Source: Clostridia bacterium
Lineage (GTDB): Bacteria > Bacillota > Clostridia > UBA1381
DNA length: 64,000 nt
Assembly (NCBI GenBank): GCA_045612845.1
Contig: JAZKZV010000023.1
Coordinates: forward strand, 71,819-135,818
Direction of reading: 5' to 3'
In this document: one piece after another, positions 2,427-35,263 of the stretch
How the letters are laid out: every line of letters starts with the position of its first letter
Numbering within the stretch: position 1 is the first letter of the stretch
Translations under genes and position numbers: made by a program
The notes under the pieces: model-generated
Seen by the model: only the letters and a program-made list of their open reading frames with translations
The model's database searches: none
What the model was told of the DNA's origin: nothing

Positions 2427-3005
2427 ATGAAAAGAGAATTCAACCACGAAAAAATTAAAGCGGCAATACGTACCATTATAACAGAATTGGGAGATGACCC
2501 TGAAAGAGAGGGGCTAAAAGAAACTCCCGAGCGTGTTGCAAAGATGTATGACGAAATATTTGAGGGTATGCGCTATACTAATGACGAAATTGCCGACATG
2601 TTTGATAAATGCTTTGAAGATGTGGAATCAGGCGATATGGTAATAGTTAAGGATATAGAGGTATTCAGTCATTGCGAGCATCATATGGCACTTATGTATA
2701 ATATGAGATGCCACGTTGCATATCTTCCCAACGGAAAGGTTATAGGTCTTTCGAAAATTGCACGTATATGCGATATGGTTGCAAAAAGATTGCAGCTTCA
2801 GGAGAGAATTGGCTCGGATATTGCGTATGTTATGCAAAAGGTATGCGATACAGACGATGTAATGGTTGTAATAGAGTGTGAGCATAGTTGTATGACAGCG
2901 CGCGGAATACGTTCACGCGGCTCAAAGACAACCACAACTGCAGTAAGAGGTAAATTCGGAACAGACTTTGAACTGAGAAACAGTGTCTATTCACAGATAA
3001 AGTAA
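2427..3005 (+). CDS. folE: GTP cyclohydrolase I
   Basis: Zinc/active-site region [10 protein letters not shown] and the PERVAKMY motif. The second ATG (2427) has better spacing from the GGAAGGAGA RBS than the ATG at 2421. Confidence 0.9.
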
Positions 3006-3026
3006 AATTGGAGTAATTAACAACAT

Positions 3027-3674
3027 ATGAGAATGAGAAAAAAGAAAAACTGTGGCGCAAGAATGGAGCGTTGCAGTGATATCTGGATAAAAAATCCCGA
3101 AGAAAACAAAGGTAAATGGTCATCCGTATTCGGTAATGATAATCCTATACACATAGAAATAGGTTGCGGAAAGGGTAATTTCATCCTTGGAATGGCAAAG
3201 ATGTATCCCAACATTAACTTTATAGGCATAGAAAAGGTCGAGGACGTGCTTGTTATGGCTATGGAAAAGGTAACAGACGCAGAGCTTACAAATGTTCTTT
3301 TTATGGATATGGATGCCGAGAGGATAGAAGAGTTTTTTGCTAAGGGCGAAATAGAGAGAATATATCTTAATTTCAGCGACCCATGGAAAAAGAAAAAGCA
3401 GGCAAAACGTCGTTTAACACATAAGAACTTTTTAGATAAATATAAAAATGTGCTAAACGAGGGCGACTATATATACTTTAAGACAGACAACAGACCGTTA
3501 TTTGAATTTTCACTAAACTCATTTTGTGAGGAAAATTATAAGCTTTCAAATATTTCTCTTGATTTACATAACTCAAATTTTGAGGGCAATGTAATGACAG
3601 AATACGAGGAGCGGTTCTCAAAAATGGGTATGCCTATATACCGTCTTGAGGCAAAATATATAGGCTGGAAATAA
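3027..3674 (+). CDS. trmB: tRNA (guanine-N7)-methyltransferase
   Basis: 215-aa ORF with the TrmB-type SAM fold (EIGCGKG, NFSDPWKKK). Confidence 0.85.
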   Translation: MRMRKKKNCGARMERCSDIWIKNPEENKGKWSSVFGNDNPIHIEIGCGKGNFILGMAKMYPNINFIGIEKVEDVLVMAMEKVTDAELTNVLFMDMDAERIEEFFAKGEIERIYLNFSDPWKKKKQAKRRLTHKNFLDKYKNVLNEGDYIYFKTDNRPLFEFSLNSFCEENYKLSNISLDLHNSNFEGNVMTEYEERFSKMGMPIYRLEAKYIGWK

Positions 3675-3712
3675 AAAGAAGTAATATCAGGTATTTTTTT
3701 ACTAAAAAGGTG

Positions 3713-19906: not shown

Positions 19907-20237
19907 TTCTACGCTCCTTTTCGACATGTAATGTTTCGTTTCGTTTCGACCTTTTAATGTTACATGAAGTTTACAAAAAAATAAAGGGGCAAGTTTGACT
20001 ATTATGGTGCAAATATAATTTTTAAGGCTCAAAAACCATAAAAAAATATAATACTTTTGGTATCAAAAATGATACTCAATAACTTAAATGCGTTGAAAAT
20101 ACAAGGAAATTTATACATTAAAAAAGTATCAAATTTAATACATGCTGTCGGATATACTGATAGGAATGTTTTCTTGTATAAAAACAAAATTGCCGGGTTT
20201 TTAAACATTTAGATACAATATATTTTGTCAAAAAAGG

Positions 20238-20266
20238 TTGTTATTTTCGACTTTATATGCTATAAT
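20238..20266 (+). promoter_or_regulatory. sigma-A type promoter driving modular element copy 1
   Basis: TTGTTA (20238-20243), 17-nt spacer, TATAAT (20261-20266). The same GGT(A)TTGTTATTTT context occurs at copy 3. Confidence 0.6.
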
Positions 20267-20269
20267 GAA

Positions 20270-20403
20270 TTCAACAAAGTTAAATTCAGCTAAATTCGCG
20301 TTCCGCGAGCTAAATGTGCTGACGCACGCTAAATTACTTCGTAGCTAAATTGACCTTCGGTCAGCTACAAGGCGAATTTAATTTAGTTACTCCAAAGGAG
20401 TTA
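20270..20403 (+). ncRNA. modular AGCTAAAT/mini-hairpin element, copy 1 (candidate structured RNA or leader)
   Basis: 5' box TTCAACAAAGTTAAAT. AGCTAAAT-type units at 20288, 20308, 20328, 20343 and 20363, each followed by a 10-12-nt self-complementary segment. TAAATTCGC (20291-20299) pairs with GCGAATTTA (20372-20380). Terminal hairpin ACTCC-AAA-GGAGT. Confidence 0.5.
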
Positions 20404-20404
20404 G

Positions 20405-20620
20405 AAAGCCTCGGTTTTAAAAATGCCTATATGGGCATTTCATGGTGCAGAGGATACGGTTGTCAGCCCGACACAATCGGATGAAATGGTTCTGTAATTA
20501 CAGGAAGCAGGCATGGACGTAACATATACCAGAATCGACGGGGTGGGGCACAATATCTGGGAAAATGCATACAATAAAGAACTGTTAGAATGGTTATTAA
20601 GTAAAAAAAGAAAAGGATAG
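20405..20620 (+). pseudogene. 3' fragment of an alpha/beta-hydrolase (esterase / S9-type) gene with an in-frame stop
   Basis: Translation ...MPIWAFHGAEDTVVSPTQSDEMVL*LQEAGMDVTYTRIDGVGHNIWENAY...LLEWLL carries the Asp (HGxxD) and His (GVGH) regions. The nucleophile half and a start codon are absent. TAA lies at 20495-20497. Confidence 0.6.
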
Positions 20621-24315: not shown

Positions 24316-24342
24316 TTGCATCTAAACCTTATGCCTCGCAAT
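24316..24342 (+). repeat. TTGCATCTAAACC-type 27-nt repeat, copy B
   Basis: TTGCATCTAAACCTTATGCCTCGCAAT. Confidence 0.8.
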
Positions 24343-24366
24343 AAATTATTGAATGGGGACCGGTGT

Positions 24367-24500
24367 CATTCGTAGCTGAATTGACCTTGAAGTCAGCTAC
24401 AAGGCAAATTTAATTTAGCAGTTTCAAAGAAACAATTTAGCTATGAAGCGAAGCGGAATAATTTGACTTTGAACGGAGTTCAAAAGAGTCGACAATAAAA
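24367..24500 (+). repeat. modular AGCTAAAT element, copy 2 (5'-truncated, no promoter)
   Basis: Aligns with the last module and 3' region of copies 1 and 3 (CATTCGTAGCTGAATTGACC...AGCTACAAGGCAAATTTAATTTAGCAGTTTCAAAGAAACAATTTAGCTAT...TTGAACGGAGTTCAA). Confidence 0.6.
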
Positions 24501-24582: not shown

Positions 24583-25395
24583 ATGTATTTGCAAAATTTA
24601 CATACGCATACTGTTTTTTGTGACGGTGCAGATACGCCTGAAGAGATGATTCTCACAGCAATAGACAAGGGGTTTGATTCCCTTGGCTTTTCGGGACATT
24701 CGTTTATGGCTTGTTCGCCTTTGTTCGCTAAAATGGGCGACAGAACGGAACAGTACAAACAAGAGATAATCGAGCTTAAAGAAAAGTACAAGGAACAGCT
24801 TAAGATATATCTCGGATTGGAAGTTGAGCTATATTCCGGGGCGGATATGACAGGCTATGATTATTTGATTGCTTCCATACACTATTTAAAGTTTGAGGAT
24901 GGATTTGTTCCCTTTGACCGCGATGCAGACTTTATGAAGAAGGTTATAGACGAGCGCTTTGGCGGTGACGGAATGTCATACGCAAAGGCATATTATAAGG
25001 CAATGTCCGAAATTCCAAGCTATGGAAATTTTGACATCATCGGCCATTTTGACATAATTACAAAGCATATTGATAACAGTAATTTTTTTGATTATACATC
25101 AAAAGAATACCTGAATGCCGCTTTTGAAGCGGCGGAAGCGCTACGGGGGGAAATACCATTTTTTGAGGTGAATACCGGTGCGGTTTCCCGTGGTTACCGC
25201 AAGACCCCATATCCGTCCATACCAATAATAAAGGAACTCAAAAGGCTTGGGTATGGCGTGGTTATAACCTCCGACTGTCACCAAAAGGATGCCCTTGATT
25301 GTTATTTTGATGAAGCGGCGGAACTGCTCAGATTTTGCGGATTTAAAGAAAAGTATATACTTACAGATAATGGATTTAAGGCGGTAGAATTATAA
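24583..25395 (+). CDS. PHP-domain phosphatase, HisJ (histidinol-phosphatase) family
   Basis: N-terminal LHTHTVFCDG metal motif and GFSGHS, in 270 aa. Confidence 0.75.
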   Translation: MYLQNLHTHTVFCDGADTPEEMILTAIDKGFDSLGFSGHSFMACSPLFAKMGDRTEQYKQEIIELKEKYKEQLKIYLGLEVELYSGADMTGYDYLIASIHYLKFEDGFVPFDRDADFMKKVIDERFGGDGMSYAKAYYKAMSEIPSYGNFDIIGHFDIITKHIDNSNFFDYTSKEYLNAAFEAAEALRGEIPFFEVNTGAVSRGYRKTPYPSIPIIKELKRLGYGVVITSDCHQKDALDCYFDEAAELLRFCGFKEKYILTDNGFKAVEL

Positions 25396-26468
25396 TGATA
25401 TATTTTACAATTATAGTGTTAATGTTTTCTCTGTTGGCGGCGGTTGACAGAATATTCGGCAGCAAACTCGGACTTGGAAAGGAATATGAAAAAGCGTTTA
25501 ACCTGCTTGGAACAATGTCACTTTCCATGATTGGTATGATAGTAATATCACCTGTCATTGCAGATTTGCTGGAACCTGTATCGGAGTTTTTGTCAAACAC
25601 CTTGCATGTTGATGCTTCAATTATTCCTGCATCTCTTTTTGCAAATGATATGGGTGGAGCACCATTGGCTGTGGGAATGGCAAACAATGAAAAAATTGGG
25701 CTTTTCAATGCACTTGTTGTTTCGTCTATGATGGGGTGTACAATATCTTTCACTATTCCCTTTGCACTTGGGGTGGTTAAGAAAGAACAACACAGAGAGC
25801 TTATTTTCGGGCTTTTGTGTGGCATTGTAACAATTCCCATCGGTTGCATTGTGTCGGGAATTATGTGCAGAATTCCGTTGCTTTCTCTGTTGGTGGTCCT
25901 TCTTCCACTGATTGTTTTTGCGGGAATCATCGCATTTGGACTTATCTGTTTCCCTGATGTTAGTGTTAAAATTTTCAAGGTTTTTGGAACTTTCATTACC
26001 GTTTTAATTACTGTGGGACTTTCTCTCGGCATCATAAACTTTCTCTTAAAAGGCGAATTTATAAAAGGTCTGGCAACCTTGGAGGAAGGTGAAATGATTT
26101 GTGTAAATGCGGCGGTAGTGCTCTCCGGCTCATTCCCGATGGTGTTCGTTTTGGCAAAAATTCTTTCAAAGCCCTTTGGTGTTATAGGAAAAAAGATTGG
26201 TGTTAATGAGTTTTCGGTAGTAGGTATCCTCTCAAGTATGGCATCAAGTGCAACATCCTTTGGAATGATGGACAGAATGGACAAAAAAGGCGTGATGATG
26301 AACTCCGCATTCTCTGTGTCGGGTGCATTTATATTTGGTAGCCATCTTGCTTTTACAATGGCATTTAACTCCGGATACATAGCTCCTGTTATTGTTGGAA
26401 AACTGATTTCGGGAGTCCTTGCGGTAGTACTTGCCGGTGCTATTTTCAATAAGTTAAATAAACAGTAA
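25395..26468 (+). CDS. eutH: EutH-family (ethanolamine-type) permease
   Basis: Polytopic. AAVDRIFG, ANDMGGAPLA and MMGCTISFTIPFALG match the E. coli EutH pattern as I recall it. The start overlaps the upstream stop (TAATG). Confidence 0.75.
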   Translation: MIYFTIIVLMFSLLAAVDRIFGSKLGLGKEYEKAFNLLGTMSLSMIGMIVISPVIADLLEPVSEFLSNTLHVDASIIPASLFANDMGGAPLAVGMANNEKIGLFNALVVSSMMGCTISFTIPFALGVVKKEQHRELIFGLLCGIVTIPIGCIVSGIMCRIPLLSLLVVLLPLIVFAGIIAFGLICFPDVSVKIFKVFGTFITVLITVGLSLGIINFLLKGEFIKGLATLEEGEMICVNAAVVLSGSFPMVFVLAKILSKPFGVIGKKIGVNEFSVVGILSSMASSATSFGMMDRMDKKGVMMNSAFSVSGAFIFGSHLAFTMAFNSGYIAPVIVGKLISGVLAVVLAGAIFNKLNKQ

Positions 26469-26937: not shown

Positions 26938-27011
<74 letters not shown>

Positions 27012-34836: not shown

Positions 34837-34865
34837 TTGTTATTTTTAAGATGTTGTGGTAGAAT
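34837..34865 (+). promoter_or_regulatory. sigma-A type promoter driving modular element copy 3
   Basis: TTGTTA (34837-34842), 17-nt spacer, TGG-TAGAAT (34860-34865). Confidence 0.6.
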
Positions 34866-34867
34866 AG

Positions 34868-35070
34868 ATTTAACAAAGTTAAATCTATTCAGCTAAATTC
34901 GCCTGACGACGAGCTAAATTGACTTCGTCAGCTAAATTTGTTAACACAAGCTAAATGTGCTTCGCACGCTAAAAGCGAATTTAATTTAGCTGTTTCTAAG
35001 AAACAATTTGGCTATCGAATGAAATGAGATAATTTGGCTTTGAACTTTAGTTCAAAATTTAGCTAAAAAG
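34868..35070 (+). ncRNA. modular AGCTAAAT/mini-hairpin element, copy 3 (most complete)
   Basis: 5' box TTTAACAAAGTTAAAT. AGCTAAAT at 34891, 34912, 34930 and 34949, and GCTAAAA at 34968. Interleaved hairpins TGAC-TTC-GTCA, TTGT-TAAC-ACAA and GTGC-TTC-GCAC. Closing stem TAAATTCGC (34894-34902) / GCGAATTTA (34975-34983). 3' hairpins GTTTC-TAA-GAAAC and TTGAAC-TTTA-GTTCAA. Confidence 0.55.
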
Positions 35071-35263
35071 GTTGACATCTAAATTGTATACTGATTTATT
35101 ACTGATTTCAACAAAGATGAAATCAGAATATAAATCTTTTGAGAGATTTCGATTGTAGAGAAGGAGTTTGCTCCTTCCAAAAAAAACATATCGATTTCAG
35201 GACAGTAAAAATATCGGATAAGCTTTAGTTTGTATATCGGCAGAGTTTAGAAAGGAAGGCAAA

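Follow-up and report, generated by a model that had tools for sequence, protein, structure and literature searches.

A two-arm hairpin array of gut and rumen Clostridia, related to Gut-1 RNA and associated with PF05635 genes

Copies of the element in the window

A 64,000-nt stretch of the genome of a Clostridia bacterium (GenBank assembly GCA_045612845.1, contig JAZKZV010000023.1, positions 71,819 to 135,818 of the forward strand; hereafter the window) contains three intergenic repeats in which a constant heptamer alternates with short hairpins, and the question is what kind of element they represent. In this study, a covariance model (R1) was built from 35 related elements of other genomes and used to search the window with filters off. 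The three loci are one complete and two truncated copies of a structured cassette of about 175 nt that occurs in gut and rumen Clostridia (Oscillospirales). As described below, the cassette has two complementary arms, the first resembling Gut-1 RNA, and a number of its relatives stand upstream of a gene of the protein family PF05635. The search returned exactly three significant places, the next-best match scoring 10 bits:

34889-35065, + strand: copy 3, complete; 177.5 bits, E 9e-40 (− strand, 73.6 bits)
20286-20448, + strand: copy 1, with homology at 20286-20401; 122 bits (− strand, 35.5 bits)
24318-24491, + strand: copy 2, with homology at 24369-24483; 82.7 bits (− strand, 15.3 bits)

At all three places the model scored 2 to 5 times higher on the + strand than on the − strand, so the element has a clear polarity. 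Pairwise comparison within the window showed that the three copies align with one another, and the octamer AGCTAAAT was found 12 times in the window compared with 4.9 ± 2.1 times in dinucleotide shuffles, none of 100 shuffles reaching 12. An earlier note on this DNA had placed three copies on the + strand, and alignment and model search find every one of them there. The layout that it gave them holds in part: the copies are real, but only copy 3 is complete. Copy 1 keeps the 5′ two-thirds, matching model positions 1 to about 125 only, with homology stopping at 20401. Copy 2 keeps the 3′ two-thirds; it begins inside hairpin 3 (hp3) at 24369 and has lost the final linker.

Anatomy of the element

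The full element consists of a leading hairpin (hp0), four GCUAAAU linkers (F1 to F4) each followed by a mini-hairpin (hp1 to hp4), a centre GCGAAUUUA, and four AUUUAGC linkers (R1 to R4) with three larger hairpins (hp5 to hp7) between them. The 5′ (F) linkers and the 3′ (R) linkers are reverse complements of each other, which had been missed: the 3′ half, previously taken for miscellaneous hairpins, is instead a second arm with linkers AUUUAGC or AUUUGGC. The repeat units reported earlier are present, with four GCTAAAT per copy spaced 16-21 nt apart, a degenerate fifth (GCTAAAA) in copy 3, and a hairpin in every spacer. The features of the three copies are as follows.

Copy 3
34837-34865, + strand: sigma-A-type promoter; −35 TTGTTA, 17-nt spacer, extended −10 TGgTAGAAT; 9 of 12 consensus matches, with TG
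34862-34890, + strand: hp0, GAATAGATTTAAC-AAA-GTTAAATCTATTC; ends 1 nt short of the first linker, and its 5′ arm overlaps the −10 box
34892-34974, + strand: F arm; GCTAAAT at 34892, 34913, 34931 and 34950, each followed by a mini-hairpin (hp1 to hp4); degenerate GCTAAAA at 34968
34975-34983, + strand: centre GCGAATTTA, the complement of TAAATTCGC (34894-34902), a stretch made up of the 3′ part of linker 1 and the hp1 5′ arm
34984-35063, + strand: R arm; ATTTAGC or ATTTGGC at 34984, 35006, 35032 and 35057, with hp5 to hp7 between; hp6 has a purine-rich internal loop

Copy 1
20238-20266, + strand: sigma-A-type promoter; TTGTTA-17-TGcTATAAT, 10 of 12 consensus matches, with TG
20266-20288, + strand: hp0, TGAATTCAAC-AAA-GTTAAATTCA, with a single C.A mismatch
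20289-20401, + strand: arms; GCTAAAT at 20289, 20309, 20328 and 20344, with hp1 to hp4
20372-20380, + strand: centre GCGAATTTA
20381-20387, + strand: linker R1, ATTTAGT
20389-20401, + strand: hp5, ACTCCAAAGGAGT; the remaining R arm is missing

Copy 2
24369-24483, + strand: 3′ part of hp3, linker F4 (GCTGAAT) at 24375, hp4, centre GCAAATTTA at 24404-24412, and linker R1 at 24413
Later part of the same copy, + strand: hp5 at 24421-24433, R2 at 24435, hp6 at 24443-24459, degenerate R3 (ATTTGAC) at 24461 and hp7 at 24469-24483; R4 is lost

A single element interrupted by a 4-kb insertion, with copies 1 and 2 as its two halves, was also considered and rejected, since the stretch from hp3/F4 to hp5, about 50 nt, is present in both.

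Relatives in other genomes

The pattern AGCTAAAT-N7-16-GCTAAAT-N7-16-GCTAAA matched at least 120 loci in a genome collection, and 59 elements were parsed from the matches listed (related loci are cited here by L numbers). Among the matches listed, most belong to Ruminococcaceae, Oscillospiraceae, and other Clostridia, as metagenome-assembled genomes from rumen and gut. The relatives share a recurrent layout. The hairpin hp0 ends 1-4 nt before the first linker; the F arm has four GCTAAAT about 21, 19, and 17 nt apart, each followed by a mini-hairpin of 9-14 nt; GCT and 3-7 variable bases then lead to the centre GCGAATTTA; and the R arm has four (A)ATTTAGC(T) about 22, 26, and 25 nt apart, with the larger hairpins hp5 to hp7 between them. 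About 45 full-length matches to the R1 model scored at least 140 bits.

The earlier note had compared the array to the modular A-Bn-C build of streptococcal BOX elements, a comparison that would need revision. Exactly 4 + 4 linkers are present in 35 of the 59 elements among the matches listed, and the short copies of the window are truncations and not variants with fewer modules. In some relatives (L198, L210, L008, L067, and L056), however, blocks of one or two units have been duplicated in tandem and one arm has 6-13 units, so the 4 + 4 number is not absolute. The element resembles BOX, Correia, REP/BIME, and RUP elements in being multi-copy, intergenic, modular, and strongly folding, with frequent truncated copies, the capacity to carry or affect promoters, and no transposase. 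BOX subunits are 45-60 nt long, whereas those found here are about 20 nt; also different from BOX are the mostly fixed 4 + 4 arrangement, the two complementary arms, the consistent partner gene, the host clade, and the sequence, for which no similarity is known.

Evidence for a folded single strand

The spacers of the relatives are end-anchored hairpins with a mean stem of 4.1 bp, compared with 0.65 in shuffles, and 22-30 distinct sequences occur at each position. In a MAFFT alignment of the 35 relatives, the seven hairpins and four linker helices contain 95.8% standard pairs, and every one of the seven hairpins shows strong covariation. Changes on both sides of a pair were counted in 285 cells against 87 ± 8 in column shuffles (0 of 500 reached the observed number) and 65 or fewer with the partners slid. 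RNAalifold independently returned hp1, hp2, hp4, and hp5 together with the linker-linker helices; the latter are invariant inside the GCTAAAT subfamily and hence uninformative there. The replacement of one terminal hairpin by another between copies (ACTCC/GGAGT versus GTTTC/GAAAC) is real compensation, all four scored pairs being changed on both sides in 11-20 of the 35 relatives.

Conserved mismatches in hp6 and in some hp7 were 58 G.A or A.G against 4 C.T or T.C, which identifies the + strand as the folding strand. A strand test by G.U versus A.C wobbles was also tried; with 10 v 4 there were too few pairs to decide, and the G.A versus C.T asymmetry was used instead. The 285 cells and the 58-to-4 asymmetry bear out the proposal that selection acts on single-strand structure and not on a coding or duplex site.

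The same data bear on a reading as a duplex-DNA site array, similar to iterons, operators, or centromere sites, in which four direct and four inverted AGCTAAAT sites would be bound by a DNA-binding protein. The invariant 8-9-bp motif, first direct and then inverted at roughly two-turn spacing, would suit such an array, as would the fact that the linker type tracks the clade of the adjacent small basic protein. However, palindromic spacers with compensatory substitutions would be unneeded, the spacing ranges from 16 to 27 nt, and strand-asymmetric G.A mismatches would be meaningless in a duplex; we consider this reading very improbable.

The 9-bp pairing TAAATTCGC/GCGAATTTA that the earlier note saw enclosing the array covaries, and does so across subfamilies as well. 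Within the subfamily, the centre helix occurs as TTCGC/GCGAA, TTTGC/GCAAA, TTCAC/GTGAA, and TTCGGC/GCCGAA. In other subfamilies, drawn from the same loci and from the Gut-1 seed alignment, the sequences are unrelated and the centre is still the exact reverse complement of the first linker's tail and the hp1 5′ arm behind it (six subfamilies altogether); these cross-subfamily replacements were judged by inspection. Besides GCTAAAT, they include:

TCGATAT: 3′ linker ATATCGA; centre GAGATTTATATC or GAGAATTCATATC
GTTATAT/GTGATAT: 3′ linker ATATCAC; centre GGCAAATATA or GGCGAATATA
GCGATAT: 3′ linker ATATCGC; centre GGATTTATATC
ATGAATT: 3′ linker AATTCAT; no clear centre

Two mutually exclusive helices are therefore conserved, since the hp1 5′ arm pairs locally with the hp1 3′ arm as well as with the centre. 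A nested ladder (F1:R4, F2:R3, F3:R2, and F4:R1, with the hairpins kept) has a mean predicted energy of −56.4 kcal/mol compared with −58.4 kcal/mol for the unconstrained minimum free energy (MFE) fold, and it is the MFE fold of copy 3 of the window. With the centre helix forced, the mean is −46.0 kcal/mol, about 10 worse than the ladder.

These folds bear on the idea, put forward in the earlier note, of a small RNA acting in trans as a sponge for a protein or an RNA through single-stranded AGCUAAAU repeats. It can be said for this idea that copies 1 and 3 have a strong predicted promoter of their own, that the linkers are invariant and the hairpins free to vary, which argues for sequence-specific recognition of the linkers, and that linkers F2 to F4 would lie in a multiloop once the centre helix forms. 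Nevertheless, each AGCUAAAU unit has a complement in the 3′ arm and the ladder is at or near the MFE. Complementary second-arm linkers are present in every subfamily, and the linkers are wholly different between subfamilies in tandem in one genome, pointing to pairing specificity and not to a single conserved binding partner. Further, no terminator that would mark a discrete small RNA 3′ end was found after copy 1 or copy 3, and the array is strongly linked in cis to one gene family. A sponge is therefore quite improbable. Both the sponge and the duplex-site readings fit the data less well than a role as RNA in cis or as mobile DNA.

Relation to Gut-1 RNA

At the gathering threshold of Rfam 15, the only match in the window was one tRNA, and at E values up to 10 only noise was found besides a weak match to Gut-1 (RF01706). 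The Gut-1 model, with a gathering score of 50, gave 16 bits (E 2.2) for copy 3, no match at E up to 10 for copy 1, and 25.8-31.1 bits for the relatives L024, L028, and L029. In L024, 250 nt downstream of a GCTAAAT element, a true GTGAAAT array reached 49.9 bits. Alignment of the relatives to the Gut-1 covariance model showed hairpin-for-hairpin correspondence. The statement that the repeat is not a known RNA family is thus correct as regards the Rfam threshold, but the 5′ arm has the Gut-1 architecture.

Gut-1 was described by Weinberg et al. in 2010 from human-gut metagenomes only, as three hairpins without gene association, with the assessment "RNA: Y", 43 representatives, and 18 covarying positions (PMC2864571). 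Both elements come from the gut microbiome, and in both, mini-hairpins about 12 nt long with loops of the UUCG type are separated by an invariant heptamer whose last four bases are AAAU. The flanks of the Gut-1 seed sequences (PMC2864571 supplement) also hold hp0, four linkers, a complementary centre, and four reverse-complement linkers; this extended two-arm layout is present in BAAZ01000095 and BAAZ01025322 when compared with copy 3, and one seed flank has a tRNA followed by hp0. The differences are the linker, which is GUGAAAU or GUGAUAU in Gut-1 and of GCUAAAU type in the three copies of the window, and the extent of the Rfam model, which has 77 positions and covers the 5′ arm only. Judged from sequence and covariation, the window element is a new linker subfamily of a Gut-1-like superfamily, and the published Gut-1 model covers one arm of a larger two-arm element. 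A literature search on the octamer and on "Gut-1" returned nothing past the 2010 paper; the two-arm architecture, the linker subfamilies, the organism assignment, and the PF05635 linkage appear to be new to the literature searched.

Association with PF05635 genes

Nine GCTAAAT elements are followed by a conserved open reading frame (ORF), MAESIMLDKAKDF..., which begins about 25 nt past the last linker. The ORF was identified as PF05635 (23S_rRNA_IVP, E 2e-28) and TIGR02436 ("four helix bundle protein"), and the closest solved structures to its product are 2rld and 2gsc, with five chains each. With tblastn, 10 of 10 PF05635 matches across the genome loci were directly behind an array. The same search found no PF05635 homologue in the window, so all three of its copies are orphans.

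A reciprocal test was made by scanning metagenomes with the PF05635 protein, which gave 80 loci of 48-96% identity, 67 of them with enough upstream sequence. A hairpin array (at least 3 units, at most 300 nt upstream, on the strand of the gene) was present at 49 of the 67 homologues (73%) compared with 20 of 674 control windows (3%); by the stricter criterion of both arms upstream, the number was 33 of 67. The order was F arm, R arm, 15-30 nt that include an RBS (ribosome-binding site), and ATG, in the fully read loci as well as at all positions listed by the both-arm scan. Linkers upstream of PF05635 homologues were GCTAAAT, GTKATAT, RTGAAAT (true Gut-1), CAGTGAT, GGTAAAT, GTTCCCG, and CGATGTG, each type forming one contiguous block on a protein tree built by the unweighted pair group method with arithmetic mean (UPGMA). 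GUGAAAU arrays are among those found upstream of PF05635 homologues (L229, L234, L240, L242, and L244). At 8 of 57 loci the ORF instead lies between the two arms, which are long inverted repeats of 50-131 aligned nt (L208, 93/102 nt; L210, 105/131), scoring 37-134 compared with 28 or less in shuffles.

To our knowledge, Avd, the accessory protein of diversity-generating retroelements (DGRs), is the only understood member of PF05635, a very large family in which the partner protein of the array alone has at least 8000 relatives. Avd acts with structured RNA. The partner protein of the element is in the same Pfam family, which is listed as Avd (PMC10053308); different from DGRs, no reverse transcriptase and no template/variable repeat pair was seen near the cassettes examined.

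A parallel in arrangement is provided by the IVS (intervening sequence) in the 23S rRNA of Coxiella burnetii, in which the S23p ORF lies within the loop of a terminal stem of 28 bp that RNase III cuts (PMC4990558). That IVS has heptameric direct repeats 5′ of the ORF; its protein, S23p, forms a homopentameric toroid (PMC4990558). The protein family is the same, an ORF between inverted-repeat arms occurs in 8 of the 57 related loci, heptamer repeats precede the ORF in Coxiella too, and both systems show ORF decay and ORF-less versions. On the other hand, such IVSs are located in helix 25 or 45 of 23S rRNA, whereas the window has no rRNA and the relatives described here follow tRNA, tmRNA, rRNA-operon, or protein genes; the arms here are hairpin-plus-linker arrays instead of a plain stem and are mostly both 5′ of the ORF; and the copies of the window are without any ORF.

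Genomic setting and the mobile-DNA alternative

The main rival explanation is that the cassette is selfish mobile DNA, its arms being terminal inverted repeats with repeated subterminal motifs, PF05635 a cargo or mobility cofactor, and any RNA effect incidental. The 175-nt arm-to-arm form would then be an internally deleted derivative, similar to a miniature inverted-repeat transposable element (MITE), and the hairpins would matter in a single-stranded DNA (ssDNA) intermediate or in cruciforms. We regard this as a serious though lesser possibility. Several observations are in its favour. The element is multi-copy, and some of its copies are truncated or decayed (the window has three plus one, and L078 a mosaic); the copies lie between unrelated genes. 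Eleven of the 59 elements sit 35-43 nt past tRNA genes of differing identity, others come after tmRNA (L069 and L086), an rRNA operon (L094), tRNA 3′ fragments, or protein genes, and an identical hp0 sequence is found behind different tRNAs. The inverted-repeat arms that flank the ORF in 8 split loci, the conservation of hp0 even where a promoter would leave it out of the RNA, and a leading-strand and co-directional bias, which is also compatible with ssDNA exposed on the lagging-strand template, point the same way. In addition, two metagenomic loci (L219 and L247) have the same tRNA 3′ end (..GGGTTCAAATCCCGTCACTCCGACCAG) about 330 nt upstream of the PF05635 gene, followed by cassettes that differ in hp0, linker (GTTATAT vs CGATGTG), and protein clade, which suggests that one cassette has replaced another at a hot spot linked to the tRNA. 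A recurrent ...CCAG junction is found before hp0.

Against mobile DNA, no transposase, integrase, or reverse transcriptase was seen beside the cassettes examined, PF05635 is without known catalytic activity, and no target-site duplication was recognised. The fixed orientation and the distance of 15-30 nt to the PF05635 start codon would be unexpected for a randomly inserting MITE. Moreover, hairpin positions keep their identity across genera and the G.A-rich loop is strand-specific, indicating function and not spread alone.

Viral contigs gave 55 pattern matches and the element in one only (L142), with no phage association, and PADLOC defence models gave no match. Several solitary arrays have small XRE-type helix-turn-helix genes on the opposite strand downstream (L094, 933-1175; L007; L082), and L094 also contains a 391-aa ORF at 2517-3692 with MORN-like repeats (by eye); no integrase was seen. 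Arrays with other linkers (GTTCGGT, GTGAAAT, and GTTATGA) adjoin GCTAAAT elements (L024, 6990-7040 and 7071-7210; L078, 1260-1330). Within positions 300-1800 of L078, boxes and a PF05635 gene lie in a mosaic with arrays, some intact and others decayed.

Promoters and hp0

In a consensus scan, the sigma-A promoters proposed for copies 1 and 3 were both found, with 17-nt spacing, TG, and the numbers of matches listed above, and no such promoter was found at copy 2. TGnTAKAAT is kept in 11 of 51 relatives, with TTG at −35 amid otherwise unrelated sequence. Transcription from the predicted promoters of copies 1 and 3 is plausible. The linker units themselves were considered as −35/−10 promoter pairs and rejected, the spacing in copies 1 and 3 being unsuitable.

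A strong hairpin ends at the first linker in 41 of the 51 relatives (median z −6.2). This hp0 is followed by a T-run in 22 of 51, and in elements linked to tRNA, tmRNA, or rRNA it is flanked by A- and T-runs, as in a terminator. The suggestion that the repeats are leaders of co-directional downstream genes is weak. Solitary arrays in the relatives are co-directional with the upstream ORF in 37 cases v 11 (p 2e-4), and with the downstream ORF, once PF05635 is excluded, in 24 v 14, which is not significant.

The favoured reading and its strength

The reading that we favour, with a probability of about one-half, is that the array acts as RNA in cis with the PF05635 gene, as a protein-binding platform, an IVS-like processing stem, or both. 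The + strand would be transcribed either from the extended −10 sigma-A promoter that copies 1 and 3 themselves carry or in transcripts that read through from a co-directional, highly expressed upstream gene, giving an RNA in which invariant heptamers connect eight hairpins. The four GCUAAAU heptamers of the 5′ arm would pair with the four AUUUAGC heptamers of the 3′ arm into a rod of short identical helices with four-way junctions between them, and the alternative helix of linker 1 and the hp1 5′ arm with the centre would compete with hp1. The position of the array 5′ of the gene, or of its arms around the gene, suggests that it is the cognate cis-acting RNA of PF05635. It may serve as a multivalent platform for the pentameric protein, in feedback control or in forming a ribonucleoprotein (RNP); in addition or instead, it may act as a stem that a double-strand RNase processes, as in an IVS. 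The data establish family membership, anatomy, covariation, strand asymmetry, and the association with the gene; that the array is transcribed, bound by protein, and cut by an RNase is inferred. In the window the copies have lost the gene and are relics, and the most that they may still supply to unrelated neighbours is a promoter together with a structured leader or trailer.

Several points weigh against this reading. In many relatives hp0 looks like a terminator lying directly 5′ of the array, with no space for a promoter, and in copies that carry a promoter the 13-bp hp0 stem reaches into the −10 box. Transcription starting about 7 nt past the −10 box would drop the 5′ arm of hp0, yet hp0 is conserved, so that a role in DNA, in ssDNA, or in read-through transcripts fits better. 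A PF05635 gene accompanies no more than about 1 in 6 of the GCTAAAT arrays in genomes, and the co-divergence of linker and protein can be plain co-inheritance. The covarying centre helix is topologically incompatible with the nested ladder, so that the ladder model leaves its covariation unexplained. F:R pairing is imperfect, R3 being AUUUCGC in 13 of 35 elements and GUUAUAU opposite AUAUCAC leaving a U.C mismatch. Weinberg et al. rated Gut-1 "cis-regulatory: n" (PMC2864571). The difficulty with hp0, which is the main one, together with decay, the association with tRNA ends, and the cassette replacement at one tRNA locus, favours the mobile-DNA rival.

A bolder form of the RNA-in-cis reading, which is speculative and which we think unlikely, is that PF05635 pentamers bind the heptamer linkers sequence-specifically and that array and protein together make up an RNP cassette complete in itself, an "IVS outside the ribosome". 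Such a cassette would be excised at the ladder from read-through transcripts of tRNA, tmRNA, and rRNA operons and would spread among Clostridia, with orphan arrays as targets in trans.

Neighbouring genes and other features of the window

The host DNA of the window has a low GC content (about 36%) and contains spoIIIAA, EutH, and citrate lyase genes, as in a spore-forming member of Clostridia. Copy 1 is followed downstream by a hydrolase pseudogene fragment and then an ABC-F gene. The fragment (20434-20560, just past copy 1) resembles an alpha/beta-hydrolase or peptidase at its C-terminal end (..HGAEDTVVSPTQSDEMVL*LQEAGMDVTYTRIDGVGHNIW); it contains an in-frame stop, lacks the N-terminal part, and is a pseudogene remnant, which suggests rearrangement at the site of copy 1. 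Copy 2 precedes a PHP-domain gene and EutH, and copy 3 precedes a DUF4430 gene with a decayed array between them. Two 357-codon ORFs occupy the same DNA at 25376-26449 (− strand) and 25395-26468 (+ strand); the latter is EutH (Pfam E 1e-104) and the former is presumably a shadow ORF. The sole tRNA gene (26938-27011, − strand, 67.6 bits) has none of the three array copies beside it, although the relatives often follow tRNA genes.

The decayed array and the boxes near the copies are as follows.

35072-35086, + strand: box TTGACATCTAAATTG (family consensus TGCATCTAAAyyrTTC), which comes after many solitary arrays in other genomes
35102-35240, + strand: decayed second array of the TCGATAT/ATATCGA subfamily, with hp0 at 35102-35126 and hp1 AAATCTTTTGAGAGATTT at 35132-35149
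35188, 35211 and 35234, + strand: R linkers ATATCGA or ATATCGG of the decayed array, as compared with intact TCGATAT-type elements in L029 and L051
22932-22958, 24316-24342 and 26658-26684, + strand: three intergenic occurrences of a 27-nt box, TTGCATCTAAACC(T/A)TATG(C/T)(C/G)TC(G/A)CAAT

The decayed array stops just short of the RBS of the DUF4430 gene (35264). A GCTAAAT-type array in tandem with an array of a second type was also found in L029, L051, L058, L063, and L083. In other genomes, the TCTAAA-containing box often ends in ...CCAG ahead of the next hairpin. The TGCATCTAAA box was considered as the right end of the cassette and rejected, GCATC being found at most 70 nt from the stop codon in just 4 of 71 PF05635 loci. 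A TTGCATCTAAACC box (24316-24328, + strand) stands about 40 nt 5′ of copy 2, the box at 35072-35086 is related to it, and another (26658) is about 250 nt from the tRNA gene of the window. That the box is a promoter for an alternative (forespore) sigma factor is only a guess.

Significance

For the window itself, three intergenic repeats and a fourth, decayed one are accounted for, and two likely imported promoters are placed ahead of the ABC-F gene and the DUF4430 gene. Gut-1 has been an orphan since 2010, without organism, context, or function; many linker subfamilies of the motif are now placed in cultivable gut and rumen Clostridia, and the linkage to PF05635 makes the function of the motif testable for the first time. 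Two unexplained objects, the Gut-1-like motif and PF05635, thereby become one testable RNA-protein system. If the bolder form were true, the orphan arrays of the window would tie their neighbouring genes to a PF05635 protein, and a first function would be gained for the Gut-1 motif and for thousands of PF05635 genes outside DGRs.

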